Origin: an uncultured delta proteobacterium
Lineage (GTDB): Bacteria; Myxococcota_A; Polyangia; Polyangiales; Ga0077539
Assembly: GCA_903845045.1 (NCBI GenBank)
Contig: CAIMWA010000029.1
Location: forward strand, 32-64,031
Direction: 5' to 3'
DNA length: 64,000 bases
The position numbers and the translations under genes are program-made. Shown here in pieces: positions 3,121 to 26,200 of this stretch. The notes beneath the pieces were generated by a model. It searched no databases, was not told where the DNA came from, and saw nothing but the letters and a program-made list of their open reading frames with translations. The stretch's first letter is position 1. Each line of letters starts with the position of its first letter.

Positions 3121-3220
3121 GACGCTCACCGTACCAGAGCCCGGACGGCGCTCCGAGCGCGCGCAGGTGCGGGCCGACGCCCCCTTCCAACGGTGCGGCG
3201 GGTGCGGTAACGGGTGCCCC

Positions 3221-6200: not shown

Positions 6201-7792
6201 ACGTCGGCCTCGTCGAGGCGTTCCGCCACGTCGCCGACCGCAGCGGCGCGCTCTACTACTCGGTGAACACCGCGGGCAACGGCCTCTCGACGCCGCTCGA
6301 CCTGCGCCAGTGGTCCACCGGCGGCGCGCCGCACGGCATGCACTACACGCAGATCCCGACGCTCTTCGGCGCCCGCGCCGACGGCACGCCGGACATCCGC
6401 AACGACAACCGCTACGACGTGTTCCTGCGCGAGACGCACAACGAGTCGCTCCCGGGCTGGGGCGACGCGTCGTTCACCAACGTGACCAACGACGGCCACG
6501 TGCTCGTGCCGTACCGCTTCGACTCCGACGAGCGCGCGGGCCTCATCTGGCAGGACCAGCGCTACGACGCCGGCGCCGACGCCTACGAGTCGCTCCACTA
6601 CGTCGCGTCGCACTGGATGGACTACTACTTCCAGAACAGCTACGCGCGCCTTCGCTCGGGCTTCTCCACCGAGGCGTACGTGAGCCGCATGTTCGGGCGC
6701 TACCTCGAGCAGCTCCGGCAGTGCGCGCAGACGCTCGCCTTCGACCTCATCGAGTTCCAGGATTTCCTCGCGACGTCGCCCGGCTGGACGGCGTACCGCG
6801 ACGACCCTGCGGAGGCCGGCGGCTTCGTGAACCAGGCCGCCATGAGCCTCGTCGCCGACGCCTTCACGTCGATGATCGCGATGCCCGAGATGGGCCTGCA
6901 CCAGGTCACCACGCGGCAGGACGGCCAGCGCGTGGCGGCCTACAACGTCGACGCGCGGTCGGGCTTTCCCGTCGCCATCAACGTCGGCCGCGCCTTCGAG
7001 ACCAACTGGCGCCAGGACGCCGGCTTCTGGTGGTACGAGGAGCTGAACCGCGCCGGCTCGTACTACGACAAGGTGCTCAGCATCGACTCGTTCACGGACC
7101 CCGAGCTGCTGCTCCTCGGCCGCGACACGCCGGTGGACCTGCGCCTCTTCCAGCTCTCGTTCTACACGATGTACCCCGCGCAGACGCTGCGCCTCTGGGG
7201 CGCGCTGCTCTCCGAGGACCTCGACGACTACGCGCCCATCGTGGAGGTCGGCGGCACCCACGGCATCACGCGCCCGCACCTCGCCACGCTCAACCTCCCG
7301 CGCGGCAACGGCGCGGGCCAGAGCGGACGCGTGCTCGACGCCGGCCACGTCGCGCTCGACCCGCAGGCGGCGTTCACCGTGCAGCTCCGCGCGGCGATCA
7401 TCGGCACGGCGAATTTCCCCGCCACCTTCGACCAGCGCTACATGGACTACGCGCGCCTCTGGATCGACGGCAGCACCGAGTCCATCGACACCGCGGACCC
7501 GGCGCACGACACCGTGAGCTTCGCCGACCCGTGGTCGCACACCACGTACCGCGCGCTGCATTTCTCCGCGCTCCCGGGCGCGACCGGCGCCGTGGCCGAC
7601 GAGGCCGGCGTCGCCGCGCGCATGATCCTCCGCCTGCGCGACCTCGACGCGCTCCGCACGCGCGCCATCGCGCAGCACCAGGACACCCTCGCCACGTCGC
7701 TCGAGACGCAGCTCCGCGCGTACATCGACGTCATCCACGTCATGCGCCGACTGACCTCGATCTACGGCACCGGGACCGCGGTGACCCACTGA
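3221..7792 (+). CDS. Large secreted zinc-dependent metalloprotease lipoprotein (1523 aa)
   Basis: I trimmed the track ORF 2003..7792 to the ATG at 3221 (MKALAVRSLLWMSLAAPVLLSCAQ), which gives a lipoprotein signal. The upstream part of that ORF is antisense to the previous gene. The HELGHSVGQRHNF zincin motif resembles, from memory, the HExGHxxGxxHNF signature of the DUF4953-type zinc-dependent metalloprotease family. Confidence 0.85.
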   Translation: MKALAVRSLLWMSLAAPVLLSCAQERAPINQVQPDYLDKNDFIPAQYALLASGTAQPGSLTDAVIAREPVYYTQTTMIAKPASTGFVGLTSYSNLEKIRWEVTEHALIARQSYDFVQNAPLGSAGIGITPRSGEIVAAFEITSHFDIRRQYNSTTGEEINVVSENTTDRPWYQRQFMHVDWSKNLVDGYNSVLSDENWDGRISAEPVPVFVNTPDDPNAPVFDHGTVNGQNVLRYFDVVTRAILHPESVDLGPGLSNVPVCFLGEGETACNPAEVTFRLSFRRADGRDYEPASLSPALPGVATPVPSLDMERFGFFDAVRMGFDTQRHSVLDTQRVHWAARHNLWVHHHVPAYGAATGRDCNADADCGDGNLCQIGATARSSTARGTCVAWGASHLTGATEPRCTQDSDCAAVSSTAVCDTRAGTCGDHYVRCAADDECRALSPLSTCDLAIAHNRADNRGLCLLPFSQRQVRPIAYWESPNYPARVQPVTESIVTEWNTAFAEAVQAARRHECHIARNLDASAMTPTADPCNAPEVLGTDAPHGADAVHVYVGCHAPVWGSDPTKPGFHPAGDVAATQRAGWDLPACGPQGTQARLGDLRYNMIGAITDQDAQGYWGLANIASDPETGEIIAGRGAVWQNITDNYGAWVVDLVKLLNGDTTATALSDGANVIASLRQVGGGAQSPSAQSLDAPFRRAGALRSLTTATTPAFERLRLGDAGWFSPGGSATLMGTADEPGVIARASQRILQGRLLGDGSNRAAARRAALVGTDVESSLMGGAQALLAPTSRQDPSGLLPATLNAASPLRAQDPARRRVMQRMRDQLTAWECGHEAAFDDDILAGLAQRVVTGAPISPDDPIDAPVAFGRTWNFRDGNGAVDYELVRQYAVQFVHHGVLAHELGHSVGQRHNFTASADAINYDDHYWDVRGRGHAAGLAPRWSYLADPADGHYESPEEVTGRVDEFAYSSVMDYKGLNEDAHGLGRYDRAFVKNGYVGLVEAFRHVADRSGALYYSVNTAGNGLSTPLDLRQWSTGGAPHGMHYTQIPTLFGARADGTPDIRNDNRYDVFLRETHNESLPGWGDASFTNVTNDGHVLVPYRFDSDERAGLIWQDQRYDAGADAYESLHYVASHWMDYYFQNSYARLRSGFSTEAYVSRMFGRYLEQLRQCAQTLAFDLIEFQDFLATSPGWTAYRDDPAEAGGFVNQAAMSLVADAFTSMIAMPEMGLHQVTTRQDGQRVAAYNVDARSGFPVAINVGRAFETNWRQDAGFWWYEELNRAGSYYDKVLSIDSFTDPELLLLGRDTPVDLRLFQLSFYTMYPAQTLRLWGALLSEDLDDYAPIVEVGGTHGITRPHLATLNLPRGNGAGQSGRVLDAGHVALDPQAAFTVQLRAAIIGTANFPATFDQRYMDYARLWIDGSTESIDTADPAHDTVSFADPWSHTTYRALHFSALPGATGAVADEAGVAARMILRLRDLDALRTRAIAQHQDTLATSLETQLRAYIDVIHVMRRLTSIYGTGTAVTH

Positions 7793-7979
7793 AAAGTGGG
7801 GCATTTTGGGACTTGAGGCGGCTTCCCGCCGCGTGTAGCCATCATCCCTGCGAGGCACTCCGGCCGCGGATTTCCGCGGACCGCGATCGCTGGTTCGTGA
7901 CGTGCACGGTGCGGGGCCCGTGAGGCCCGAGGACGCGCCGTGATGGTGCCCTCCGCCCCGTATCCCAGGAGACCACCCC

Positions 7980-9092
7980 ATGCCGATGAATCTCCGCTGC
8001 GTGGCGCTCGCCATCGCGGCTCTCTGGTCCGCTGGATGTCATCCCCACGAGGCTGCGGAGCACTCGACCCATGAGCGGCGTCCCGGCCGCACCGTGGTGC
8101 TCACGGGTCCCAGCACGAATTACGTGACGGTGGAGCCCGCCGCGCCGGCGTCGCACTCGAGCGCACGCACGCTCGTCGCGCGCGTCGCCTTCAACGATCG
8201 CCAGGTCGCGACGCTCGGTCCGCCGGTGCAGGGGCGCGTGGCGAACGTGAACGTCGTCGTCGGCGACCACGTCGACCGCGGCGCCGTGCTGCTCACCATC
8301 CACGCGCCGGACATCGCCGCGGCGCGCGCACAGGCGGCGCAATCCCACACCGCGCGGGCCCTCGCCGAGCAGAACGCGGCGCGCGCGGCGAGCCTCGTGG
8401 AGACCGGCGCGGGCAGCCAGTCCGATCGTCTCGCGACGCAGGCGGCGCTGCTCCAGGCGCGGTCCGAGGAGGCGCGTGCGACGGCGGCGCTGGCGGCCCT
8501 CGGCGGCGGCCGCGGCACCGGCGACTACCAGCTCGTGGCGCCGATGTCGGGCATCGTCGTCGAGCGCAACGTCTCCCTCGGCACCGAGGTGCACGTCGAC
8601 CAGGACCAGCCGGTCATCACCATCGCCGACCTCTCGACGGTGTGGGTCATCGCCGACGTCTACGAGCAGGACCTCTCCCGCGTGCACGTCGGCGACGAGG
8701 CGGTGGTCGACGTGGTGGCCTTCCCGGGGCGGCAGTTCCAGGGGCGCATCACCTACGTGGGCAACACCGTCGACGCGCAGACCCGCGTGTCGCGCGCCCG
8801 CATCGAGCTGCCCAACACCGACTTCGCGCTGCGGCCCGGGATGTTCGCCAACGTGCAGGCCCGCGGCATCGCCGAGGGCGCCGTCGAGGTGCCGCTCAGC
8901 GCCGTGCTCGCGCGCCGCGACCAGTACTTCGTCTTCGTGCGAAACGCCGACGGGAGCTACACGCAGCGCGAGGTGCGCCCCGGCGAGCAGCGCGGACAGC
9001 ACATCGCGATCCTCTCGGGGCTCCACGTGGGCGACCCGGTGGTGACCGAGGGGGCGATCCTCCTCGACGCCGAAGCCAACGAGGCGCTGTAA
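7980..9092 (+). CDS. Efflux RND periplasmic adaptor subunit (HlyD/CzcB/CusB-like) lipoprotein
   Basis: AGGAGA lies 8 nt upstream of the ATG. The lipobox is LWSAGC. The protein has a coiled-coil Ala/Gln-rich hairpin segment and then beta-barrel-like motifs (YQLVAPMSGIVVERNV, VWVIADVYEQD, GMFANV). Its stop is 4 nt before the RND pump gene. Confidence 0.85.
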   Translation: MPMNLRCVALAIAALWSAGCHPHEAAEHSTHERRPGRTVVLTGPSTNYVTVEPAAPASHSSARTLVARVAFNDRQVATLGPPVQGRVANVNVVVGDHVDRGAVLLTIHAPDIAAARAQAAQSHTARALAEQNAARAASLVETGAGSQSDRLATQAALLQARSEEARATAALAALGGGRGTGDYQLVAPMSGIVVERNVSLGTEVHVDQDQPVITIADLSTVWVIADVYEQDLSRVHVGDEAVVDVVAFPGRQFQGRITYVGNTVDAQTRVSRARIELPNTDFALRPGMFANVQARGIAEGAVEVPLSAVLARRDQYFVFVRNADGSYTQREVRPGEQRGQHIAILSGLHVGDPVVTEGAILLDAEANEAL

Positions 9093-9096
9093 CCCG

Positions 9097-12000
9097 ATGA
9101 TCCATCGCATCGTCGAGTTCTCGCTCCGGCAGCGGGGGGTCATCCTCGTCGCCGCGCTCGTGGTGGTCCTGCTCGGGATCAACGCGTTCAACAACCTGCC
9201 CATCGAGGCGTACCCCGACGTCGCCGACACCTGGGTGCAGATCATCACGCAGTGGCCCGGCCACGCCGCCGAGGAGACCGAGCGCCAGATCACGCTCCCC
9301 ACGGAGCGCGTGATGAACGGCGTGCCGCGGCAGACCGCCATCCGCTCCACCAGCATCGCCGGCCTGAGCGTCGTGACGCTCATCTTCGAGGACGGCACCG
9401 ACAGCTATTTCGCGCGCCAGCAGGTGCTCGAGCGCCTCGGCCAGATCGACCTCCCGGACAACGTGTCGCCGACGCTCGGCCCCCTCGCGAGCCCCGTCGG
9501 AGAGATCCTTCGGTACCGCCTCGTGAACTGCGCGCAGACCCGCGCGCCGCAGTGCCACGACGAGGACTACGCGACGGCGCCGCGCTCGCTCTCGGAGCTC
9601 AAGGACCTCGAGGAGTGGGTCGTCGAGCGCGAGCTCCTCGCCACGCCGGGCGTCGCCGACGTCGTGAGCTTCGGCGGCACCGTGAAGCAGTTCCAGGTGT
9701 TCCTGAACCCGTCGCTGCTGGCCGCGCGCGGGCTGACCCTCGTCGACGTTCAGCACGCGCTCACCGAGGCCAACGGCAACGCCGGCGGCGGCGTCATCGC
9801 GTACGGACCCGAGGCTCTCAACGTGCGCGGCCTCGGGCTGCTCCACCCCGAGCAGATCGCCGACGTCACCGTGGCGACGCGCAACGGCACCCCCATCCGC
9901 GTGCGCGACGTCGGACAGGTGCAGGTGGGCTACCAGCCGCGGCTCGGTCGCGTGTCCGTGAACCGCGACACCGACGTCGTCGCCGCGACGATCCTGCTGC
10001 GCAAGAACGAGCAGGCGCAGACGGTCCTCGACCGCGTGCACGAGCGCATCGAGGACATCAACCACCGCGTGCTGCCGCGCGGCGTGAAGCTGAGCCCGTA
10101 CCACGACCGCACCGAGCTCATGCACCTCACCACGCACACGGTGATGGAGAACCTGCTCGTCGGCATCGGGCTGGTGACGCTCATCCTGTTCGTGTTCCTC
10201 GGCAACGGGCGCGCGGCGTTCATCGTCGGCATCACCATCCCGCTGTCGCTGCTCATCGCGTTCATCTTCATGGACGTCGCGAAGATCCCCGCGAACCTGC
10301 TCTCCATCGGCGCCGTCGACTTCGGCATGATCGTCGACGGCTCCATCGTGATGGTGGAGAACATCTTCCGGCTGCTCACCGAGAAGCAGGAGAAGAACGA
10401 GCCCTACGACCTCGCCGAGCTCGTGCGGGCCGCCGCGCGCGAGGTGGCCCGGCCCATCGTCTTCGCCATCGGCATCATCGTGACGGCGTACCTGCCGATC
10501 TTCACGCTGCAGCGGGTCGAGGGAAAGCTCTTCCGCCCCATGGCGTGGACCGTGGCCTTCGCGCTGCTCGGCGCGCTGCTGCTGGCCATCACCGTGGTGC
10601 CTGTGCTCTGCACGTACCTCTTCCGCTCGAAGGTGAAGGAGTTCCACAACCCGCTCCTCGGCCTCGTGCGGCGCGTGTACCTGCCGTCGCTCACGCGCTT
10701 CCTGAAGTTCCCGAAGTTCGCGCTCATCGTCGGCGCGGTGCTCCTCGTCGCCGACGGAGTCGCCGCGCGGCACATCGGCAGCGAGTTCCTCCCGCACCTC
10801 GACGAGGGCGCCATCTGGATGCGCGTCTCCATGCCGTCGAACATCTCCCTCGCCGAGGCCGAGGCGCTCGTCGACGGCGTGCACACGCCGCATCGCAACA
10901 TCACCGGCGTGCGCGAGATCCTCCAGCGCTTCCCCGAGATCCGCATCGGCAGCGCGCAGATCGGGCGGCCCGACGACGGCACCGACCCGACGGGGTTCTA
11001 CAACGCCGAGTTCCTGATGATCCTCCACGACCGCCACACCTGGCGGCCGCAGTTCCATCAGCACAAGGACGAGCTCATCGACGCCGTGAACCGTGCGGTG
11101 GCCGTGATCCCCGGCGTGAGCCTCGGGTTCTCGCAGCCCATCTCCGACAACGTCGAGGAGGCGCTCACCGGCGTGAAGGGGCAGCTCGCGGTGAAGATCG
11201 TGGGCGACGACCTCAACGCCCTCGACGACATCGCCGACCACATCGCGCGCTCCATCGCCACGGTGCCGGGCGTGGTGGACCTCGGCATCTTCCGCGAGCT
11301 CGGGCAGTCGAACCTGCACATCGAGATCCTTCGTGACCGCGCCGAGCGCTACGGCCTCACCGTCGACGACGTCGAGGACGTCATCGAGGGCGGCATCGGC
11401 GGGTCGTCGGTCACGCAGATCGTCGAGGGCGAGCGGCGCCACGACCTCGTGGTGCGCTACGCCGCCGAGAACCGCGACAGCGTCGACGCCGTGCGCCGGC
11501 TGCTCATCCCGCTGTCCGACGGGCGCACCGTGCCCCTCGGACAGGTCGCCGAGGTGAGCATCATCGGCGGCGCGTCGCGCATCTTCCGCGAGTCGAACCG
11601 GCGCTACATCGCCATCAAGTTCGGCGTGCGCGACCGCGACCTCGGCTCCACCGTCGCCGACGCGCAGGCGAGGGTCGGGCGCGCGGTTCGCGTCCCGCCG
11701 GGCTACCAGGTCACCTGGGGCGGCGAGTTCGAGAGCGCGCGCCGCGCCGGCAAGCGCCTCGCCCTCGTCATCCCCGCGACGGTGGTGCTCATCTTCGTGC
11801 TGCTCTTCGCCATGTTCCGGCGCGCGCGCGAGTCGCTCATCATCCTCGCGAACGTGCTCCTCACGTCGCCCTTCGGCGGGCTCGTCGCGCTGGTGCTCAC
11901 GCGCACGAACTTCTCGGTGAGCTCCGGCGTCGGGTTCCTCGCGCTCTTCGGGGTGTCGGTGCAGACCGGCGTGATCCTCGTGGCGTACATCAACGAGCAG

Positions 12001-12294
12001 CGCGCCGAGGGGCTCGCCCTCGACGACGCCATCAAGAAGGCCGCGGACCTCCGCCTGCGCCCGATCATGATGACGGCCCTCGTGGCCACCCTCGGCCTGC
12101 TGCCCGCCGCCATGAGCACGGGCATCGGCTCGGACTCGCAGAAGCCCCTCGCCATCGTCGTCGTGGGCGGACTCGTGTCGTCGCTCACGCTCTCGCTGAT
12201 GATGCTGCCGCTCCTCTACAAGCTCTTCGCGCCGACCATCGTGATGTCGGAGCAGCGCATGCTCGAGGAGTCGAAGGCGCCCGACGAGGCCTGA
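9097..12294 (+). CDS. CusA/CzcA-family heavy-metal efflux RND transporter (1065 aa)
   Basis: The N-terminus MIHRIVEFSLRQRGVILV...LPIEAYPDVADTWVQIITQWPGHAAEE is the typical CzcA/CusA start. There are 12-TM-like hydrophobic blocks and two large periplasmic loops. No outer-membrane factor gene is adjacent. Confidence 0.9.
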   Translation: MIHRIVEFSLRQRGVILVAALVVVLLGINAFNNLPIEAYPDVADTWVQIITQWPGHAAEETERQITLPTERVMNGVPRQTAIRSTSIAGLSVVTLIFEDGTDSYFARQQVLERLGQIDLPDNVSPTLGPLASPVGEILRYRLVNCAQTRAPQCHDEDYATAPRSLSELKDLEEWVVERELLATPGVADVVSFGGTVKQFQVFLNPSLLAARGLTLVDVQHALTEANGNAGGGVIAYGPEALNVRGLGLLHPEQIADVTVATRNGTPIRVRDVGQVQVGYQPRLGRVSVNRDTDVVAATILLRKNEQAQTVLDRVHERIEDINHRVLPRGVKLSPYHDRTELMHLTTHTVMENLLVGIGLVTLILFVFLGNGRAAFIVGITIPLSLLIAFIFMDVAKIPANLLSIGAVDFGMIVDGSIVMVENIFRLLTEKQEKNEPYDLAELVRAAAREVARPIVFAIGIIVTAYLPIFTLQRVEGKLFRPMAWTVAFALLGALLLAITVVPVLCTYLFRSKVKEFHNPLLGLVRRVYLPSLTRFLKFPKFALIVGAVLLVADGVAARHIGSEFLPHLDEGAIWMRVSMPSNISLAEAEALVDGVHTPHRNITGVREILQRFPEIRIGSAQIGRPDDGTDPTGFYNAEFLMILHDRHTWRPQFHQHKDELIDAVNRAVAVIPGVSLGFSQPISDNVEEALTGVKGQLAVKIVGDDLNALDDIADHIARSIATVPGVVDLGIFRELGQSNLHIEILRDRAERYGLTVDDVEDVIEGGIGGSSVTQIVEGERRHDLVVRYAAENRDSVDAVRRLLIPLSDGRTVPLGQVAEVSIIGGASRIFRESNRRYIAIKFGVRDRDLGSTVADAQARVGRAVRVPPGYQVTWGGEFESARRAGKRLALVIPATVVLIFVLLFAMFRRARESLIILANVLLTSPFGGLVALVLTRTNFSVSSGVGFLALFGVSVQTGVILVAYINEQRAEGLALDDAIKKAADLRLRPIMMTALVATLGLLPAAMSTGIGSDSQKPLAIVVVGGLVSSLTLSLMMLPLLYKLFAPTIVMSEQRMLEESKAPDEA

Positions 12295-13314: not shown

Positions 13315-13468
13315 GAAGGGCCTCGAGGTGAATAGGGTGGAGAGGGGCGCGCCGAGCGCGAATGGCCGCGGAATCTACACGAACGCTCGCGCTCTGCGAG
13401 CCTCGGCATGCTAAGCGACAGGCTCCGTTGGAGACGCGGCGATGGCGCCGCACGCACTGGAGATGACG

Positions 13469-14134
13469 ATGCGAACGAAGATCATTCTTGGAACGAGCCT
13501 GCTCCTCTCTGCCTTCGCGGCCGGCTGCGGCGACAGCGCCTCGACGGCGGACGCCTCGGTGACCGACGTGGGAACGCCCAGCGACACCGGCTCCGCGACG
13601 ACGGACACCGGCGCGGTGACCGATGCGGGACCGCACGCCGACAACCCCGTGGTGACGGACGTACCCGCGGTGACGGACGTGCCGGTCGCGACCGACGTTC
13701 CTGCGGTGACCGACGTCCCCGCGGTGACGGACGTTCCCGCCGCGACGGACGTTCCCGCCGCGACGGACGTTCCCGCTGCGACGGACGTTCCCGCGGTCTT
13801 CCCGGTGCTGCACGGCTGCGCGGCGACGGACTACGTCGACCAGAGCGCCGCCGCCGGTGTGCGCACGGTGTCCTTCGGTGGCGTGGCCTACACGCCGAGG
13901 TGCCTGACCATCGCGGCGGGCCAGTCGGTGAGCTTCTCCGGTTCCTTCGCGGCGCACCCGCTTCGCGGCGGCCTCGCGCCGGGACAGACCGGCACCGCGA
14001 CGACGCCGAACCCCATCGCGAACACCGACACCGGATCGACGGCGGCGTTCACCTTCGCCACGCCTGGCTTCTACCCGTTCTACTGCAACGTGCACTTCGC
14101 GTCGGGCATGACCGGCGTCGTGCAGGTCCGCTGA
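13469..14134 (+). CDS. Cupredoxin (plastocyanin/azurin-like type-1 copper) lipoprotein with a VTDVPA tandem linker
   Basis: The lipoprotein signal is MRTKIILGTSLLLSAFAAGC, with GGAG 6 nt upstream. The track ORF starts at 13442, and 13463 is another possible start. The C-terminal domain has candidate T1Cu ligands: FAAHPL ... FYCNVHFASGM, i.e. C-x2-H-x4-M. Confidence 0.8.
   Translation: MRTKIILGTSLLLSAFAAGCGDSASTADASVTDVGTPSDTGSATTDTGAVTDAGPHADNPVVTDVPAVTDVPVATDVPAVTDVPAVTDVPAATDVPAATDVPAATDVPAVFPVLHGCAATDYVDQSAAAGVRTVSFGGVAYTPRCLTIAAGQSVSFSGSFAAHPLRGGLAPGQTGTATTPNPIANTDTGSTAAFTFATPGFYPFYCNVHFASGMTGVVQVR
13652..13795 (+). repeat. In-frame 18-bp tandem repeat, 8 units, encoding (V/A)TDVP(A/V)
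   Basis: Read directly: gtgacggacgtacccgcg and its variants occur 8 times consecutively inside the cupredoxin gene. Confidence 0.9.
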
Positions 14135-14174: not shown

Positions 14175-15788
14175 TCACCGCATGCAGAGCGAGAGCGGCG
14201 TGCCGTCGTAGGCGGTGCCGTCGGCCATGCAGTGCATGCCGGTGGGGCAGAGGCGGTCGGGACAATACCGGGTGCAGTAAGCCGTTCCGCCGGTGCCGGG
14301 CAGGCACAGCCCGGTGGCGCAGTCCGCGGCGCGCGCGCAGGTGCCGTTGACGGCCACGGAGCCGAACACGGCGCGCTGGCAGGTCATGTAGACGTCGGCG
14401 CCGTCGGGCATGGGCTTGCACGCGAAGCCCGGCGGGCACCCGCCGGTGGGGGTGCACCCCTGCACGCAGGTGCTCGTCGAAGGATCGCAGATGCCGCTGA
14501 TGCAGAGGTTCGAGGCGACGCTCCCGCAGGCGCCGCCCAGGGGGTGGTTGCCGATGATCCGGTCGACGCCGGTCGCGACGCCGGTCACCGGCGGAACGCA
14601 CACGGTCTGTGGAACCCCCGAGAGCAACTGGCACTGGTACGGCGAGAGGTGCGTCGGGACGCCGGTGCCGGGGTTGACCGTCATGCGCACCGGGCAGTCC
14701 GTGGCGGAGCGGCAGAACGAGCTGCAGAAGCCGGTGCCGTTGGAGACGTAGCAGAGCCCGGAGACGCAGTCCGCGCCGCTGTTGCACGGCTGCTCGACGA
14801 CGATGCAGAGGCGAACGCCGGCGAGCCCGGGCGCGTCCTGGCAGCCGAAGCCCGCGGGGCAGTCGGCGGCGACGCGGCACTCGCGGGTGCAGTGGCCCGT
14901 GCCGATGCTGTTGCCGAGGCAGTACCGCGCGCACATCGACGACGTGGCGGGCGTGCAGACGACGCCGGTGTCGTCGGGCACGCAGAGTCCCGGACCCCCG
15001 ACGCCCATGGCGCACTCGAAGCCCACGCCGCAGTCGCTGTTTGCGGCGCAGGTCTGCGTGCACCAGCGCGCGCCGGTGGGGTTCGTGTAGCAGTGGTTGG
15101 TGATGCAGTTCGCGTCCGTCGTGCACGGATCGAGGTAGCCCCCGCGCACGCCCGTGTCCGGCGGACCGGTGTCGACGGGGCCGGTGTCGGCGGGTCCTGT
15201 GTCCCGCGGACCGGTGTCGACGGGGCCGGTGTCGACGGGCCCCGTGTCCCGCGGACCGGTGTCGACGGTGCCGGTGTCGATGGGTCCTGTATCCGCAGGA
15301 CCTGTGTCGGCAGGGCCGGTGTCCGTCGTACCGGCGTCGACGACGACGTCCATCGGCGGCGTGTCCATCGGAGCGACGACGTCCGTCGGCGGAGCGCTGG
15401 TGTCCGCCGGCGGGCCGGCGTCGGCCGGGGTCGTTGCGTCGGGGTCCGTCGTCACCACGTCCGCGGCGGGTGCGTCGGCGATCGGGTTCCCCGCATCCCC
15501 AGCGTCGTCGGCGGATCCCGCGTCCTTCTTCGTGCCGGCGTCGTCCGGCGAGCTGCAGCGACCGCGGGCGAGGTCGCAGACGCGGCCGCCGGTGCACTCG
15601 GTGTCCGTCGTGCAGTCGACGTGGCAGACGTTCGCGACGGTGCAGTACGTGCCGTTGGCGCAGTCGGTGTCGCCGAGGCATCCGCCCGACGCCGCGCACC
15701 GCGCCGTGACCACCGCCGACGCCACCGCGAGCGCGCCCACGCGCAGCATCGCGGACCATCCCGAGCGCCACCCGCGTCCACCAGCCAT
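14175..15788 (-). CDS. Secreted cysteine-rich repeat protein (about 537 aa) with a DTGPx pentapeptide tandem tract
   Basis: I trimmed the track ORF 14175..16151 to the ATG at 15788; 15749 (MLRVGALAVASAVV) is an alternative. A signal peptide is present. DTGP(A/V/R/I/P) occurs about 12 times, followed by about 6 modules of the type C...(A/S)DC..G..C.......G.C...C....DCP.G..C. Confidence 0.8.
   Translation of the reverse strand: MAGGRGWRSGWSAMLRVGALAVASAVVTARCAASGGCLGDTDCANGTYCTVANVCHVDCTTDTECTGGRVCDLARGRCSSPDDAGTKKDAGSADDAGDAGNPIADAPAADVVTTDPDATTPADAGPPADTSAPPTDVVAPMDTPPMDVVVDAGTTDTGPADTGPADTGPIDTGTVDTGPRDTGPVDTGPVDTGPRDTGPADTGPVDTGPPDTGVRGGYLDPCTTDANCITNHCYTNPTGARWCTQTCAANSDCGVGFECAMGVGGPGLCVPDDTGVVCTPATSSMCARYCLGNSIGTGHCTRECRVAADCPAGFGCQDAPGLAGVRLCIVVEQPCNSGADCVSGLCYVSNGTGFCSSFCRSATDCPVRMTVNPGTGVPTHLSPYQCQLLSGVPQTVCVPPVTGVATGVDRIIGNHPLGGACGSVASNLCISGICDPSTSTCVQGCTPTGGCPPGFACKPMPDGADVYMTCQRAVFGSVAVNGTCARAADCATGLCLPGTGGTAYCTRYCPDRLCPTGMHCMADGTAYDGTPLSLCMR
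15147..15330 (-). repeat. In-frame 15-bp tandem repeat, about 12 units, encoding DTGPx
   Basis: Read directly on the + strand as repeated ggaccggtgtcgacg / gggccggtgtcg variants. Confidence 0.9.
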
Positions 15789-15846: not shown

Positions 15847-16887
15847 ATGGCGAGCGTCGTGGCGAGAGGCTTGGTCGCGGTGGCGCTGGCGACCGCATGT
15901 GGCGTGGGCGCGGCGCAGGCGCACTCGCGGCACCACCACCACCACGCGAACCACGGGCACCACCACACCCGTCGCGACGGCGCGAGCGCCCGCCCGGCGG
16001 CCGCCGAGCCCGCGAGACCTCCGACCAGCGTCGCCCCGGCGGCCACCGCTGGCGCCGCGCGCACCTTCCGCGGCCACGACGAGGACGCCCTGCTCCACGA
16101 CATGGCCACGCGGCCCGTGCTGCGCGTCATGGAGCGCTTCAGCAGCAGCACCCTCGTCTACCACTGCGACCTCGGCAACGGCCTCGAGGTGGCCTTCAAG
16201 CCCGCCCGCCGCGGCGAGCACCAGTGGTGGAAGCACGAGGTGCTGGGCTACCGCCTCGCGCGCGTGCTCGGCATCACCGGCCGCGTGCCTCCCGTCGTGA
16301 GCCGCACGGTCCCGCTGTCGGCGCTGCGCGGCTACACCCACGGCGCCGACCTCATCGTCGAGCGCGACGGCACCGTGCGCGGCGCGGCGATCTTCTGGAT
16401 GCCCGTGCTGCACCACGCCGGGCTGCACACCGGCGCTCCCCGCGCGCAGTGGGAGCACTGGCTCGACGCCCGCACCGACGTGCCCCCGGCGAACCGCCGC
16501 CGGGCGTCGCAGATCTCGGCGCTGCTCGCCTTCGACTACCTGCAGGCCAATTTCGACCGGTGGAACACCGCGAACGTACCCGTCGACGAGCACGACGACC
16601 TGGTGTTCCGCGACAACAACCGCGGGTGGTTCATGGAGAACCTCGCGCGCACCGACATGGGCACCGTGGTGCCGCCGCAGCGGGTGCCGTCGTGGATGCT
16701 CGCGGGCATCGAGCGCGCGACCCCCGAGGCCGTGCGCGCCGAGATCGCCCGCGACGGCCTCCCGTTCCATCGGCTGGCGCAGCGGTCGTACTGGGACGCC
16801 TACGCCGCCCGCCGCGAAGCGCTGCTCCGGCAGCTCCGCGAGGCCATCACCCGCTTCGGCCGCGACCGCGTGCTGTTGGACGAGTGA
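15847..16887 (+). CDS. Secreted atypical kinase-like protein (Fam20/Fjx1-like motif blocks, tentative) with an N-terminal His-rich tract
   Basis: I trimmed the track ORF 15154..16887 to the ATG at 15847 (MASVVARGLVAVALATACGVGAAQA), which gives a signal peptide. A His tract follows (HSRHHHHHANHGHHH). The motif blocks are LEVAFKP, HEVLGYRLARVLGITGRVPPVV, LLAFDYLQANFDRWN and VFRDNNRGWF. Confidence 0.8.
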   Translation: MASVVARGLVAVALATACGVGAAQAHSRHHHHHANHGHHHTRRDGASARPAAAEPARPPTSVAPAATAGAARTFRGHDEDALLHDMATRPVLRVMERFSSSTLVYHCDLGNGLEVAFKPARRGEHQWWKHEVLGYRLARVLGITGRVPPVVSRTVPLSALRGYTHGADLIVERDGTVRGAAIFWMPVLHHAGLHTGAPRAQWEHWLDARTDVPPANRRRASQISALLAFDYLQANFDRWNTANVPVDEHDDLVFRDNNRGWFMENLARTDMGTVVPPQRVPSWMLAGIERATPEAVRAEIARDGLPFHRLAQRSYWDAYAARREALLRQLREAITRFGRDRVLLDE

Positions 16888-16915
16888 TCGGTTCGTCGGG
16901 TATGTGCGCGCGGCC

Positions 16916-20093: not shown

Positions 20094-20285
20094 CCGGGCC
20101 GCCCCTTTCCCGGGTCGTTTCCCGCAGCAATTCCCGGGTCTCGCGGGCTCCGTCGGAACGCGCCATTCCCGATGCCAACGCGGGCCGCGGTTGGAGTATC
20201 TTCCGCGGTCGCAGCGAGTCTGACGGCCCAGCTCTGCACCGGTGGAGACCCGTGCGCGTGCAGGCCGCGAAGGATCACTACCGCG

Positions 20286-23200
20286 ATGAGCACCCACGCC
20301 GAGCACGAGGAACTTCTCCGCAACGCCCTTTCCGATCTCGCGGGGGATCCGTCCCGCGAGGCGGCGTGGGATGCCGCCGAGGCGAGCGCGCGGTCTCTGC
20401 AGCGCCCCGACGAGGTCATCGCGCGGTACCGCGACGCCCTCGCGCGCACCGACGTCCCGGGGCTCGCGGCGTCGCTCGGCGAGCGCGCGCTCGCGTTCGT
20501 CGAGGAGTGGTCCGGCGACACCGACGCCCGCGCGTCGATCCTGTCGGCGGTGCTCGCTGCGGAGCCGGCGTCGGCCTGGGCCTTCGAGCGGCTCACCATG
20601 GTCTACACCGTCGACGAGCGGTGGAACGACCTCCTCGCGCTCTACGACCGCACCCTCGCGTCGACGCCCGCCGACGACGCCGCGCGGCGCCGCGCCCTCC
20701 TCGAAGAGGCCGCGAACATCGCCCGCGAGTTCGCCGCGCAGCCCGACCGCGCCGCCACGTACCTCGAGTCGCTCTTCGCCCTCGACCCCGCCGACGGGCA
20801 GACGGCGCGCGCGCTCGAGCGTCTGTACGAGCGCCAGGGCCGGCACCGTGAGCTCATCCACCTCCTCACCGCGCGGCTTCCGCACCTCGGCGCCGACGCG
20901 CAGCGGGCCCAGCGCGCGCGTGTCGCCGGGCTCTTCCTCGACGCGCTCGGTGATGCCGCCGGGGCCCTCGAGGCCGCCGAGGGCATGCTCGCGTCGGGCG
21001 GCGACCGCGCCCCCGCGTGGGGTGTGCTCGAGCGCCTCGGCGCCGTCGAGGGCGACGCCGGCCGCAGCGCCCTCGCGCGCCTTCGAGCCGAGTACGACGC
21101 CGCGGGCCGCCACGAAGACGTCCTGCGCGTCCTCCACCGCGTGCTCGAGGTCTCTCCGTTGGACACCGACGGGGCCACGCGCCGCGAGCTCGCCGACCGG
21201 CTCCGCGCGCTCGGCCGCGAAGGCGACGCCATGCCGCACCTCGCGCGGCTTCTGGTGCTCACCCCCGACTCCGCCGAGGCCCTCGCCGAGCTCACCGCCG
21301 CCGCGGAGCGCAACGGCCGCCTCGACGTCCTCGCCGCCGCCCTCGTCGAGGCCGCCCGCCGTCCCGGCGTGGACGCCGCGCGCCGCCTCGAGCTGCTCGA
21401 GACCGCCGCGGGCGTGCACGCCGACGTCCTCGGAGACCCCGCCGGCGCCGTCGCGCTGCACCGCGAGATCGTCGATGCCCCCGAGGCGGGCGCCGCGGTG
21501 GCGCTGCGCAGCGCGCGGAGCCTCGAGTCGCTCCTCGGCGCAGCGGGCGATGACGCCTCGCACATCGAGGCCCTCGAGCGCCTCGCGCGCCTCGAGGACG
21601 GCGTCGACGCACGCATCGCGGCGTGGGCCAAGGCGGCCTCGCTGGCGTCGTCGTCGGGCGACGTCGATCGCGCCGTGAAGGGGTGGCGCGCCCGCCTCGA
21701 GCTCGCCGCCGGCGACCGCGTCTCCCTCGACGCGCTCGCGGGTCTTCTCCGCACTGCGGGACGCTGGAGCGAGCTCGTCGACGTGCTGCGCGCCCGCGCC
21801 GAGGTGTCCGACGCCGAGCAGCGCCGCGCCGACCTCGAGGCCGTGGCGCAGATCCAGTCGGCGGAGCTCGGCGAGGTCGCCGCGGCCGTCACGACGTGGG
21901 AGGCGATCCGCGAGGCCTTCGGCGAGGACGCCGCGGTGGTCGACGCGCTCGCCGAGCTCTTCGGCCGCGCCGAGCGCTGGAGCGACCTCCTGTCCCTCCT
22001 CGACCGCGCCTGCGAGGGCGAGCAGGACGCCGCGCGCCGGTCCTCGCTTCGGGCGAAGGCCGGAGACGTGCATCGGGCCCGGGGCGACGAGCCCGCGCTG
22101 GCGCTGGCGCAGTACCGCGCCGCCCTCGACGACGAGCCCGCACAGCCCGACGCCCGCGCGGGGATGCAGGCGCTGCTGGCCGATGCGTCGGTGCATCACG
22201 CGGCCACCGAGGCGCTCGACAAGGCGTTCCGCAAGGGCGACGACTGGGCGTCCATCGTCGGGCTCGTCGAGGACCGTCTCGCGGCAGCGCCCGACGCCGC
22301 GGCCACCATCGCGGTGCTCGAGGAGTCTGCGTCGCTGGCCGAGGGGCGTCTCGGTGATGCAGCGAAGGCCCTCGCTCTCCGTGCGCGGGCGCTCCCCGTC
22401 GCGGCGCGGAACGGCGTCTCGTCCGAAGAGCTCGAGCGCGAGATCGAGCGTCTGGCCTCCGCGGCCGGCGAGTGGCGCGTCGTGGCCGATGCCTACCGTG
22501 CGGCCCGCGATGCGAGCGAAGGAGCCGTGTCGCAGCGCATGGCCCTGCGCCTCGGCGAGGTGCTCGACGACACCCTCGGCGACCACGAGGGCGCCCTCGA
22601 GGCGTTCTCCGCCGTCGCTCGCGCCGATCGGTCCGACCTCCGCGCGGCCGCCGCGACGGTGCGCGTGAGCCTGGGCACCTCGAAGTGGGACAGCGCGGCC
22701 GACGCCTTCGTGGCGAGCTGCGTGGCCCTCGATCGCCTCGACGGCGACCTCGTCGAGACCTTCGACGCCGCCGTCGACGCGAGCGCCGAGCCGTCGGTGG
22801 CGTGGGGCAGCGCCCTCGCGGCCGTCGATGCGACGTTGCATGCTTCGGAGCCGCCCGCGCCGCTGCGCGCGGCGTTGCTGACCTGGGCGGCCCAGCGCCA
22901 CGCCGACGGGCGCGGCGACCTCGACGCCGCCGAGGCGTTCCTCGGCCGCGCGGTGGCCCTCGACAAGACCGACGTCGCGCGCCTCGAGCGCTATGCGGCG
23001 CTGCAGCGGCGTCACCCCGGCCACGCGCTGGTCAAGACGCTCCGGGCCCTCGACGAGGCCCAGGGCGACGTGCCCGCAGGGCTCGCGGCGCTCCGCGAGG
23101 CGGCCGAGGTCGAGCTCGCCACCGCCGACGATCGCACCGAGGCCCGGACCATCCTCCGCGACCTGCTCGCGCGCAGCGCGGCGCACTGGGAGCGAGGCGA

Positions 23201-26200
23201 CGCCGCCGCGCGCGACCACGCCACGTGGACCATGCGCTCCCTCGTGGACCTCTATGCATCGGGCGGAGAGCACGAGTACGCGGTGCAGCTCCTGCTGGCC
23301 GCGGCGAAGCTCCCGTTCGCGCCCGACGAGGCGCGGGTGCTCCGCTCCGAGGCCGCGCAGCGCGCCGCCCGGGACCTCGCCGATGGCCCGCGCGCCATGG
23401 CGATCTACGAGTCGCTGCTCGCCGAGGTCCCCGACGACGCGGCGGTCATCGCGGCGCTCGCGTCCCTCTACGACGCGGCGTCGATGAGGGCGGAGCTCCT
23501 GACGCTGCGGCAGCACGAGCTGTCCCTCGCCACGGAGCCCGCGCAGCGCATGCAACTGCGCATGGACATCGCGCGGAACCAGCGCGCCCTCGGCGACGAC
23601 GACGCCGCGCTGGCGTCGTACCGCGACAACCTCGCCGAGCGCCCCGGCGACGCGGCGACCATCGAGGCCGCCCGCACGCTCCTCGAGGGCGCGCGCAGCG
23701 CCGAGCTCCACGGCATCCTCGTCGCCCAGGCCGCGGCCCTCGACGAGGCCTCGGAGCACGGCGGAAGCGCGCTCTGGCTCGCGGCGGCGACGGTGGCCGA
23801 GCGCGACCTGCACGACGCCGCGGCGGCCATCGATGGCTTCGAGCGGCTCGCCGCGCGCGGCGACGACCCCTCGGCGCTCGACGCCCTCGCGCGGCTGTAT
23901 GCCGCCAAGGGCGAGCCGGCGACGGCGGCGGGCTTCCTCGAGCGTCGCCTCGCGCACGCCGACGGGGCAGACCGCCGGGCCGTCGTCGCGGCGCTGTCCC
24001 GCGTGTACGTCGCCTGCGGCGACACCGACCGCGCCCGCGCCGTGCTCGAGGCCCAGCTCCACCACGACGAGGACGCCTCGGAGCTGCGCGGCCACCTCGC
24101 GTCCCTCTATCGCGAGGCCGGCCGCTGGGAGTCCCTCGCGGCGCTGCTCACCTCGTCCGAGGGGCGCGCGCCGACCGCGGCGGACCTCCGCGAGGCTGCC
24201 GAGATTCTTCACCGCCGCCTCGCGAGCCCCGAGCGCGCGGTGCCGGTGCTCGAGGCCGCGGCTGCTGCTTCGCCCGACGACCGCGCGCTGCGCGTGGCCC
24301 TTGCCGATGCGCTGCGCGCTTGCGGACGCCTCGACGAGGCCGCCGCGATGCTCGAGGCCCTGGTCGAGAGCTACGGGCGGCAGCGCCCCGCGGAGCGCGC
24401 CCAGGCCCACCACCAGCTCGCGCTCATCGCGCGCAGCCGCGGCGACGTGACCGCCGCGCTCGTGCAGCTCGACCTCGCCACCGGCGTCGACATCGGCCAC
24501 GCGGCCGCGTTCCGGCTCCTCGGCGAGCTCGCCCGCGAGGCCGGCCTCCTCGACCGCGCCGAGCGCGCGTACCGCGCCCTGCTCCTCATCGTGCGACGGC
24601 ACGCCCCGTCGCCGTCCGACGACCTCCCGGCGCCGTCGGAGGTGCTCCTCGAACTGTATCGCGTCGCGCGCGAGCTCGGTCAGCACGACCGCGCCGCGGA
24701 GACCCTCGAGACGGCCTTCGAGACCGCCCAGCGCTCCGACGCCGACGCGCTCCGCTTCGAGCGCGCGCTGCAAGCCGCCGGCGAGCACGATCTCCTTCTT
24801 CGCGCGGTGCGTGCGCGCGCCGATCGCGAGACGACGCCCGCGGCCCGGGCGGCGGCCCTCGCCGCTGCGGCAGAGCTCCTCGAAGGCCCCCTCGGACGTC
24901 CCGCCGAGGCCCTCGACGTCCTCCTCGACGCCGTCGCGTTGCAGCCCGGTGATGCGACGTTGCATGACACCGCGCTTCGCGCTGCCCGGTCCCTCGATGC
25001 TGTGCCGCGGTACGCCGCGGTGCTCGGCGCCGCCCTCGACGCTGCGCGCTCCGGCGGCGGCGCGGACTTCGGCGCCCTGGCCCTGCGCATGGCCGACGTG
25101 CGCGCCCTGGACCTCGGCGATCCCGCGGGCGCCGTGGCGCTGTGTCGCGAGGCCGAGGCGTCCGACGACCGCGCCGTGCGCGTCGCCGCGTGGGAGGGAC
25201 TCGACCGTGCCTTCGCGGCGCTCGGCGACACCGCCCAGCGCGTCGCCGTCCTTCGTGCCCTCACCGAAGAGGACCCCGACGGCGCCGGCGGCCACGCGTG
25301 GCGCCTCGCCGAGCTGCTCCTGGCTTCGGGCGACGGTGAAGCTCTCGACGAGGGGCTCGCGTGGGTGGCCGCGGCGCACGAGCGCGCACCGGACCTCGCC
25401 CGCGCCTCGGGGCTCTTGCAGGCCGCCGCGGCGGCGTGGCCGGATCGTGCGCCGGTGCTCGACCTGTACGAGCGTGTGGCCCGGGAGTCCGGCGGCGGCG
25501 AGGCCCTCCTCGACGTCTACGAACGCCGCGCGGCGCTGCCCGACGCGTCCTGGGAGACGCTGCATCAGGCCGTCGAGCTCGCCATGGACCTCCGCTCCAC
25601 CGAGCGCGCCGAGGCGCTGCTGCGGCAGGCGGTGTCGCTCGGCGCCGAGCGCGGCGACGAGGTGTCGTCGGCGTGGGCGATGGTGGCGCTGGCCCGCATC
25701 CGGGAGTCCGCCGGCGACCCCGACGAGGCGGTGCGATGGCTCCGCCGCGCGGCGGCGCACCTCGAGCCCGGCGAGGCGACGCAGCTCGAGCTGCACGTCG
25801 CGGCGCTCGCGGCCGGGGCCCTCGGCGACCTCGCCCTCGCGGCGGACACGTATGCACGGCTGCATGCTGCGGATCCGGCGAACCGCGCGGTGTGGGAGCC
25901 GCTGCTCGCGGTGTACCGGCGCCTCGGCGACGACGCCCGCCTCGAGGCGCTCATCGACGAGACCGTGGGCAACGTCTTCGACCCCGCGGACCGCAAGCAC
26001 CTGCGCATGGAGCGCGCGCGCATCCTTCTCGGGCGCCCCGGCGGCGACGAGGCGGCCATGGAGGCGCTCCGAGCCCTCCTCGACGAGGACCCCGACGACA
26101 CCGCGGCGACGACGATGCTCGCGGATCTCTACGAGCGGGCGGGCCGCTCCGACGACCTCGCCGAGCTGCTCTTCGCGCGCTTCGACAGCGCCCGCGACCG

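Follow-up and report, generated by a model that had tools for sequence, protein, structure and literature searches.

A probable exported Fam20-type kinase encoded by an uncultured member of the Polyangiales

A 64,000-nucleotide stretch of DNA from an uncultured delta proteobacterium assigned to the Polyangiales (GenBank assembly GCA_903845045.1, contig CAIMWA010000029.1, positions 32 to 64,031 of the forward strand; hereafter the window, numbered from its first letter) contains a gene whose product has a kinase domain homologous to Fam20A, Fam20B and Fam20C. Judged from its sequence, this is a real gene that probably encodes an active, exported Fam20-type kinase, referred to below as the window protein. 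Fam20-type kinases carry out most extracellular protein phosphorylation in animals. The FAM20 family has been treated as specific to eukaryotes or to metazoans (PMC9758233). The analysis suggests that this "eukaryotic" family has a bacterial branch and that phosphorylation of extracytoplasmic targets takes place in some bacteria. No description of these bacterial proteins was found in the literature beyond a passing mention of FAM20B in a 2026 preprint, a single line of which lists FAM20B among possible Myxococcota contributions (10.64898/2026.05.08.723234).

Results

Homology of the kinase domain to Fam20

A sequence-only reading of the window had described a forward-strand open reading frame (ORF) at 15847-16887 with a product of 346 residues, in which four motif blocks resemble those of the Fam20 kinases. 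The frame and its translation were recovered as read, and every string quoted from it was found in place: MASVVARGLVAVALATACGVGAAQA at residues 1-25, HSRHHHHHANHGHHH at 26-40, LEVAFKP at 113-119, HEVLGYRLARVLGITGRVPPVV at 130-151, LLAFDYLQANFDRWN at 226-240 and VFRDNNRGWF at 253-262. Searched alone against Pfam and NCBIfam, the window protein returned only noise from its His tract and signal peptide, and a phmmer search of the Protein Data Bank (PDB) with the single sequence returned only His-tag artefacts.

A family profile hidden Markov model built from 54 homologues was compared with 177,635 distinct PDB sequences at E<=10. Eight chains were matched, six of them significantly (E 2.3e-8 to 5.6e-5), and all six are Fam20 proteins: human and zebrafish Fam20C, human Fam20A (two constructs), C. 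elegans Fam20 and a Fam20B-type xylosylkinase of Hydra. Fam20C ranks above Fam20B by profile score (E 2.3e-8 versus 5.6e-5). When the domain-only family alignment was compared by hhalign with an alignment of four PDB-verified Fam20 kinase domains, the match spanned the whole domain (264 of 275 columns) with a probability of 97.4% and an E value of 9.4e-12. The Fam20C model of Pfam is matched by 9 of the 54 close relatives at E<=1 and by 44 of 120 extended relatives at E<=0.01 (best E 3.9e-11), and one relative, P0075, exceeds the gathering score of the model (28.6 versus 26.8 bits). A comparison with the Fam20C, CotH and HipA models had been proposed from the sequence; it links the relatives to Fam20C, but the window protein itself matches none of the three. 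Weaker secondary matches of the relatives are to FAM198, HipA_2, PI3_PI4_kinase, actin-fragmin kinase and TIGR03843, all of them kinase-like families. A confident placement in a non-kinase family did not arise; no such family scores.

Predicted structures agree with the profile searches. AlphaFold2 was run on the full-length protein with the 54-sequence alignment and on the domain alone with 120 sequences. The full-length model has a predicted local distance difference test score (pLDDT) of 83.8, with values above 90 across most of residues 72-346, below 60 over the first 70 residues and below 50 at residues 1-48 and 55-57. The domain-only model reaches a pLDDT of 94.9 and a predicted TM-score (pTM) of 0.93. 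In Foldseek searches of the PDB, both models put only Fam20 structures on top: the first 27-28 matches are all Fam20 (E 1e-10 to 7e-8, probability 1.00, query TM-score 0.68-0.75), and the first non-Fam20 match follows at E 4e-3, about five orders of magnitude behind. The predicted fold is that of a Fam20-type atypical kinase, with high-confidence matches to Fam20 structures only. The resemblance of the four motif blocks to Fam20 is thus borne out by the profile, hhalign and fold searches alike.

Conservation of the active site

Residue correspondences were taken from the hhalign columns and use the numbering of the 584-residue human Fam20C; conservation in the extended family was counted over 120 cluster representatives at 23-62% identity. 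Each block falls opposite its proposed Fam20 counterpart. The Lys of LEVAFKP, suggested as the ATP-binding residue, is K118, opposite K285 of Fam20C (position by our count). It is invariant in the 54 sequences, and the position is Lys in 101 of the 120 extended relatives (84%) and Arg in 16 (13%). For the proposed Glu helix and turn, E131 aligns with E311, the canonical alphaC Glu, and RVPP (146-149) with the RVPP of Fam20; the E131 position is acidic in 120 of 120. The segment read as an FDFL.GN.DR catalytic loop places the catalytic D237 opposite D458, with D230, N235 and R238 opposite D451, N456 and R459. Conservation in this loop is 100% for D230 and R238, 98% for D237 and N243 and 97% for N235. 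The metal-binding Asp expected in DN.RGF is D256 (99% conserved), which aligns with D478, while N257 and R259 align with N479 and R481; D478 is the position whose mutation gives the standard kinase-dead form of Fam20C. In the nucleotide-binding loop, SSST (99-102) lies opposite SGGT, and R97, F98, S100 and T102 are near-invariant in the 54-sequence alignment. Conservation of K118, E131, D237, N243 and D256 at 84-100% over the 120 relatives is the signature of a working phosphotransferase.

The domain is smaller than that of Fam20. By hhalign the beta3-alphaC loop is shorter by 11 residues and the Cys-rich N-lobe insertion by 27, both at sites that hold the disulfides and the insertion in Fam20. 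Its one Cys (C107) is not conserved, and the 120 relatives have a median of 0 Cys per domain. The missing loop and insertion, together with the lack of a conserved Cys, point to a minimal, disulfide-free Fam20 core.

Export signal and His-rich tract

As noted in the sequence, the N-terminus has a hydrophobic signal predicted to direct export, but the proposed cleavage by signal peptidase I after AQA is less likely, as Cys18 (codon 15898-15900) aligns with the Cys of the lipobox in the closest homologues (VIGC, LAGC, LASC and VIAC). Because of this alignment, a signal for signal peptidase II, the lipoprotein type, is likelier, and the window protein is probably a lipoprotein anchored via Cys18. 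Among the 54 members, a lipobox-like motif occurs in at least 29 (by regular expression) and an AxAQ-type signal in about 12 (N-termini read by eye); a lipobox-like or signal motif occurs in 67 of the 107 extended-family members that start with Met. The M-x-RRR start of close homologues suggested a Tat signal, which was rejected because a twin arginine is missing from the window protein.

The His-rich tract described after the signal is present at residues 26-40. Among the 54 aligned members, an N-terminal His tract was detected in the window protein only, and nine members, mostly of the non-lipobox (AxAQ-type) clade, have His/Arg-rich C-terminal tails that end in His runs. The presence of His-rich ends at either terminus in different clades suggests a function, for which metal capture is a guess.

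Authenticity of the gene and distribution of the family

The G+C content of the window is 73.5%, so long spurious ORFs are abundant. The frame at 15847-16887 has 59 homologues in a collection of 5.8 billion proteins, all of them unnamed or "hypothetical", and the alignment of 54 homologues contains 28 invariant columns; for these reasons it is considered a real gene and not a chance ORF of high G+C content. It is present in a single copy, as determined by an hmmsearch of the six-frame ORFs of the window.

In a HMMER search of 1.84 billion representatives, the number of matched clusters falls from 1,137 at E<=1e-3 to 516 at E<=1e-10 and to 168 at E<=1e-30. The kinase family spans about 500 clusters at 50% identity, all annotated "hypothetical". 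The close subfamily was found at 20 loci in 185,579 species genomes, all in metagenome-assembled genomes (MAGs) of Myxococcota/Polyangiales. A more distant subfamily was sought with a degenerate-codon DNA pattern for FDxLIxNxDRFSGxN, which gave 84 loci, nearly all in MAGs of Polyangia, Polyangiales, Sandaracinaceae or unclassified "delta" lineages. No isolate genome is in the list of 20 loci or in that of 84.

Some loci of the family deserve separate mention. One motif-bearing locus (L081, CAXMND010000168.1) is in a MAG binned as Coxiellaceae, probably through mis-binning, and two others are from MAGs labelled just "uncultured bacterium". The MAG NC_groundwater_1661_Pr3_B-0.1um_73_23 encodes two kinase paralogues (L023 and L026), which are 53% and 41% identical to the window protein, indicating that the family has been duplicated within genomes. 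In the distant subfamily (L029-L108, e.g. L030:3669-4715 +), a small same-strand ORF lies directly downstream in 52 of 81 loci; its product contains an HDLRNP H-box and matches HisKA and HATPase_c weakly. An acyl-CoA dehydrogenase gene lies upstream. The arrangement could be a functional pairing or mere conserved synteny.

Gene neighbourhood

The kinase gene is flanked as first described. A minus-strand gene that starts at 15788 lies head-to-head with it across 58 bp, and prfC begins 16 or 28 bp after the kinase stop codon, depending on its start. No consensus promoter or terminator was detected between 15500 and 17100. The short gap before prfC (16888-16915) and the lack of a terminator-like hairpin imply co-transcription of the kinase gene and prfC in this clade. 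A functional link to prfC was considered and rejected, since the adjacency is confined to the closest clade. The block of cupredoxin lipoprotein, Cys-rich protein, kinase and prfC is syntenic only in the clade of about 70% identity (8 loci, including the window), and no universally conserved neighbour of the subfamily was found among the loci compared.

The divergent neighbour has no family-level match in Pfam, where a sub-threshold match to Extensin_1 (21 bits versus a cut-off of 105) comes from its linker, and no match in NCBIfam. About 36 Cys are invariant in its C-terminal 320 residues, and its acidic D/T/A/G/P linker is hypervariable. It appears to represent an undescribed myxobacterial Cys-rich family. 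Of 24 distinct loci, 10 have an orthologue that divergently adjoins the kinase, and these belong to two clades that are not sisters in a rough neighbour-joining tree. Outside the clade of about 70% identity, the neighbour stands, at 43-47% identity, beside P0037- and P0050-type kinases, whose other flanking genes differ. The presence of the neighbour in non-sister clades means that the pairing is either ancestral with repeated loss or selected. The first description, a secreted Cys-rich neighbour with a DTGPx tract, holds in part: the neighbour is kept in two clades, but the tract is not conserved in its orthologues.

The remaining neighbours are described for completeness. The cupredoxin gene matches Copper-bind of Pfam (E 2e-6) and is syntenic with the kinase in the closest clade only. 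Upstream of it, at 7980-12291 (+), is an RND efflux pair consisting of an HlyD-type membrane-fusion protein and an AcrB-family transporter (E 2e-252). The window also contains very long ORFs, one at 20172-28034 (+) of 2,620 residues and an overlapping pair at 1313-8014 (-) and 2003-7792 (+) of about 1,900-2,200 residues; the overlapping pair has no Pfam match. At a related locus (L001), the gene after prfC encodes more than 1,800 residues without a Pfam domain. Glycogen-metabolism genes lie directly upstream of two unrelated family members, possibly by coincidence.

Table 1. Coordinates of the kinase gene, its predicted elements, its neighbours and related features at other loci
Feature	Position	Strand	Residues	Basis and remarks
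Exported Fam20-like kinase gene (probable)	15847-16887	+	1-346	346 aa; stop codon 16885-16887
N-terminal export signal MASVVARGLVAVALATACGVGAAQA (predicted)	15847-15921	+	1-25	Probable lipobox A-T-A-C; alternative signal peptidase I site after AQA25
His-rich tract HSRHHHHHANHGHHH	15922-15966	+	26-40	Read directly
Ala/Pro-rich low-complexity linker	15967-16059	+	41-71	Low pLDDT; length and sequence vary among homologues
Fam20-like kinase domain	16060-16884	+	72-346	275 aa; hhalign, AlphaFold2 model, Foldseek
Nucleotide-binding loop equivalent ERFSSSTL	16129-16152	+	95-102	Opposite Fam20C MKSGGTQL
Beta3 strand LEVAFKP with putative ATP-binding Lys118	16183-16203	+	113-119	Lys118 codon 16198-16200; opposite Fam20C LFKP
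Helix alphaC with Glu131 (HEVLGYRLARVLG), then RVPP turn (146-149)	16225-16293	+		Model helix 127-141; hhalign
Catalytic loop FDYLQANFDRWNTAN	16531-16575	+	229-243	Opposite Fam20C FDFLMGNMDRHH; D230, N235, D237, R238, N243
FRDNNRGWF with DFG-equivalent, putative metal-binding Asp256	16606-16632	+	254-262	Opposite Fam20C HLDNGRGF
Divergent Cys-rich secreted protein	14175-15788	-		537 aa; acidic D/T/G/P linker; candidate partner or substrate
Cupredoxin lipoprotein	13442-14134	+		LSAFAAGC lipobox; long TDVP/DTG repeat linker; C-terminal plastocyanin/azurin-type domain
prfC	Start GTG 16904 or ATG 16916	+		Pfam GTP_EFTU E 2e-51, RF3_C E 1e-43
Cys-rich neighbour orthologue	L001:5495-6925	-		
Cys-rich neighbour orthologue	L006:5554-6756	-		
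Cys-rich neighbour orthologue	L007:5369-6895	-		
Glycogen phosphorylase	L008:4436-6988	+		
Starch/glycogen-synthase domain	L016:4364-5215	+		
His-rich C-terminal tails	Alignment columns ~650-807			Members P0018, P0022, P0025, P0028-P0030, P0033, P0040, P0043

Discussion

Proposed function

It is reasonably likely that the window protein is an exported Fam20-fold enzyme, cut down to the catalytic core, that phosphorylates an extracytoplasmic substrate, the likeliest acceptors being Ser/Thr residues of secreted or envelope proteins. The protein would be exported by the Sec pathway and then lipidated at Cys18, so that a flexible linker of about 50 residues would tether it to the membrane, facing the periplasm or the cell surface. 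K118, E131, N243 and D256 would bind a nucleotide-metal complex, for which the His tract may keep metal ions in reserve locally; the metals preferred by Fam20C are Mn2+ and Co2+ (PMC7948968). D237 would then act as the base for phosphate transfer to the extracytoplasmic acceptor, and the divergent Cys-rich secreted protein would be the first candidate substrate. A protein acceptor is favoured because R259 is the Arg of Fam20C, and because the CotH gene lies in a cluster with genes for the repeat proteins that are CotH substrates (PMC7821199). In Fam20B the position aligned with R259 must be Lys for disaccharide binding, and in Fam20C it is Arg (PMC5865150).

Several observations weigh against an exported Fam20-type protein kinase. 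The periplasm and envelope are regarded as devoid of ATP (PMC11986105), so that the phosphate donor is a problem for the model; the enzyme might act at the cell surface, in vesicles or among lysed prey cells, or it might use a different donor. The window protein does not match Fam20C of Pfam (PF06702) even at E<=10. Glu306 of Fam20C coordinates Mn, and Fam20A is a pseudokinase because it has Gln instead (PMC7948968); in the hhalign comparison, where the alignment of this loop is uncertain, Glu306 falls opposite an invariant Trp128. Glu124 is near Trp128, but it is kept only in the close subfamily. The argument from R259 is weak, since this Arg occurs only in the subfamily of the window protein. 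Sub-threshold matches to HipA_2 (PF20613) occur in 34 of the 120 extended relatives (best E 6e-6), and TIGR03843, the SCO1664 family, is matched among them at E 9e-8 (31.8 bits versus a cut-off of 172). These weak matches show an affinity to bacterial kinase-like families, possibly with small-molecule substrates. With regard to the candidate substrate, the Cys-rich neighbour is absent at 14 of the 24 loci. The DTGPx tract was rejected as a specific phospho-acceptor, as the orthologue linkers are of the DAG, DVP or PPPPDTG type; together with the similar linkers of the adjacent cupredoxin, this variation makes the tract look generic.

The serious rival to a protein acceptor is a glycan, lipid or small molecule. 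Fam20B phosphorylates xylose in the proteoglycan linker, and many bacterial kinase-fold families act on small molecules. An exported, Fam20B-like enzyme acting on exopolysaccharide, lipopolysaccharide or another envelope molecule is possible, if not likely. Fam20B-type structures (5xom and 5xoo) match the window protein nearly as well as Fam20C, the extended family weakly matches HipA_2, PI3_PI4_kinase and the SCO1664 family, and the glycogen-metabolism genes at two loci point the same way. The 2026 preprint places Myxococcota beside eukaryotic FAM20B in gene trees (10.64898/2026.05.08.723234). However, the profile search scores Fam20C above Fam20B, R259 is an Arg where Fam20B needs Lys (PMC5865150), and no glycan-synthesis genes are conserved beside the kinase at the compared loci.

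It is improbable that the kinase fold serves another role here, either as a Fam20A-like pseudokinase scaffold or in AMPylation or glutamylation as in SelO or SidJ. The position of Trp128 opposite the Glu306 that Fam20A has lost would be explained in this way, kinase-fold enzymes with other chemistries are documented (PMC7948968), and non-catalytic binding would suit an ATP-poor compartment. Yet K118, E131, D237, N243 and D256 are conserved in the pattern of an active phosphotransferase, E131, the canonical alphaC Glu, could stand in for Glu306, and the window contains no active paralogue that a scaffold could regulate. Least probable is that a mis-called start or a cytoplasm-facing anchor conceals an ordinary atypical kinase using cytoplasmic ATP. 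This would remove the ATP problem and would fit the imperfect A-T-A-C lipobox and the location 16 bp upstream of the gene for the cytoplasmic factor PrfC with no terminator-like site between. Against it, most full-length homologues begin with a signal or lipobox, in one of two forms and with a flexible linker after it; any in-frame start further upstream would run into the divergent gene; all the eukaryotic relatives reside in the lumen or are secreted; and the adjacency to prfC is limited to one clade.

Significance

The family constitutes a large bacterial Fam20 branch with an intact catalytic core and predicted export signals. It offers a simple, disulfide-free model of the Fam20 fold that should express easily, a candidate source of the secretory-pathway kinases, and a concrete way to ask whether bacterial phosphorylation of proteins or glycans extends past the inner membrane, into a region regarded as lacking ATP. 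In the predatory and social myxobacteria, an enzyme of this kind could act on proteins of the matrix, on adhesins or on proteins directed at prey. A broader and tentative proposal, for which the odds are not favourable, is that the Polyangia possess an old and diversified set of lipoprotein-anchored, disulfide-free Fam20 kinases that phosphorylate extracytoplasmic proteins, and that these are the prokaryotic sister or source of the eukaryotic secretory kinases. If true, a Gram-negative bacterium would for the first time be credited with a dedicated system for extracytoplasmic protein phosphorylation, and an unrecognised supply of ATP or another phosphate donor to the envelope or surface would be needed. 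The family would also provide a prokaryotic sister or source of Fam20, Four-jointed and Fam198, and the proposed myxobacterial contributions to eukaryotes would gain a concrete endomembrane enzyme.

Comparison with known systems

Bacterial kinase-like families outside Fam20 are the more distant point of comparison. HipA_2, the SCO1664 family and CtkA of Helicobacter pylori (3akk) share a GN.DR-type catalytic loop with the window protein, but the matches of the relatives to HipA_2 and the SCO1664 family are weaker than those to Fam20C, and the window protein matches neither HipA_2 nor TIGR03843. CtkA is the best non-Fam20 structural match, with a TM-score of 0.47. The members of these families are cytoplasmic or effector proteins and are not known to carry lipoprotein signals.

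The CotH spore-coat kinases of Bacillus (PF08757) are distant bacterial relatives of Fam20C, and their genes are clustered with those of the repeat-rich substrates CotB and CotG (PMC7821199). CotH resembles the window protein as a bacterial Fam20C-related atypical kinase acting outside the cytoplasm proper, and its gene clustering with CotB and CotG resembles the pairing of the kinase with the Cys-rich protein. Nevertheless, CotH of Pfam is unmatched by the window protein at E<=10 and is absent from the families matched by the 54 or the 120 relatives; likewise, no CotH chain was found in the PDB profile search at E<=10 or in the top 50 Foldseek matches. A DFG-type motif is reported to be missing from CotH (PMC12189002), whereas the bacterial Fam20-like family has an invariant Asp opposite D478 of Fam20C. 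The hosts also differ in phylum and biology, the myxobacterial family being without endospores.

Fam20C, the Golgi casein kinase, and its paralogues Fam20A and Fam20B (5yh3, 5yh0, 4kqa, 5wrr and 5xom; PF06702) are the closest known systems, with the same atypical kinase fold, alignable over the whole domain at about 16-22% identity. The bacterial domain has 0-2 Cys, none conserved, and no disulfides, whereas Fam20 has about ten conserved Cys; the bacterial family, besides its bacterial hosts, lacks the N-terminal wrapping segment of Fam20; and its predicted anchor is that of a lipoprotein instead of the type II membrane or signal anchor of Fam20. Common to both are the xFKP Lys, the alphaC Glu in HE or AE, the RVPP turn, the FD[FY]L.[GA]N.DR and DN.RG[FW] motifs, a C-terminal helical bundle that ends in a conserved RR...G motif and, as predicted for the window protein, an N-terminal signal that targets the kinase out of the cytoplasm.

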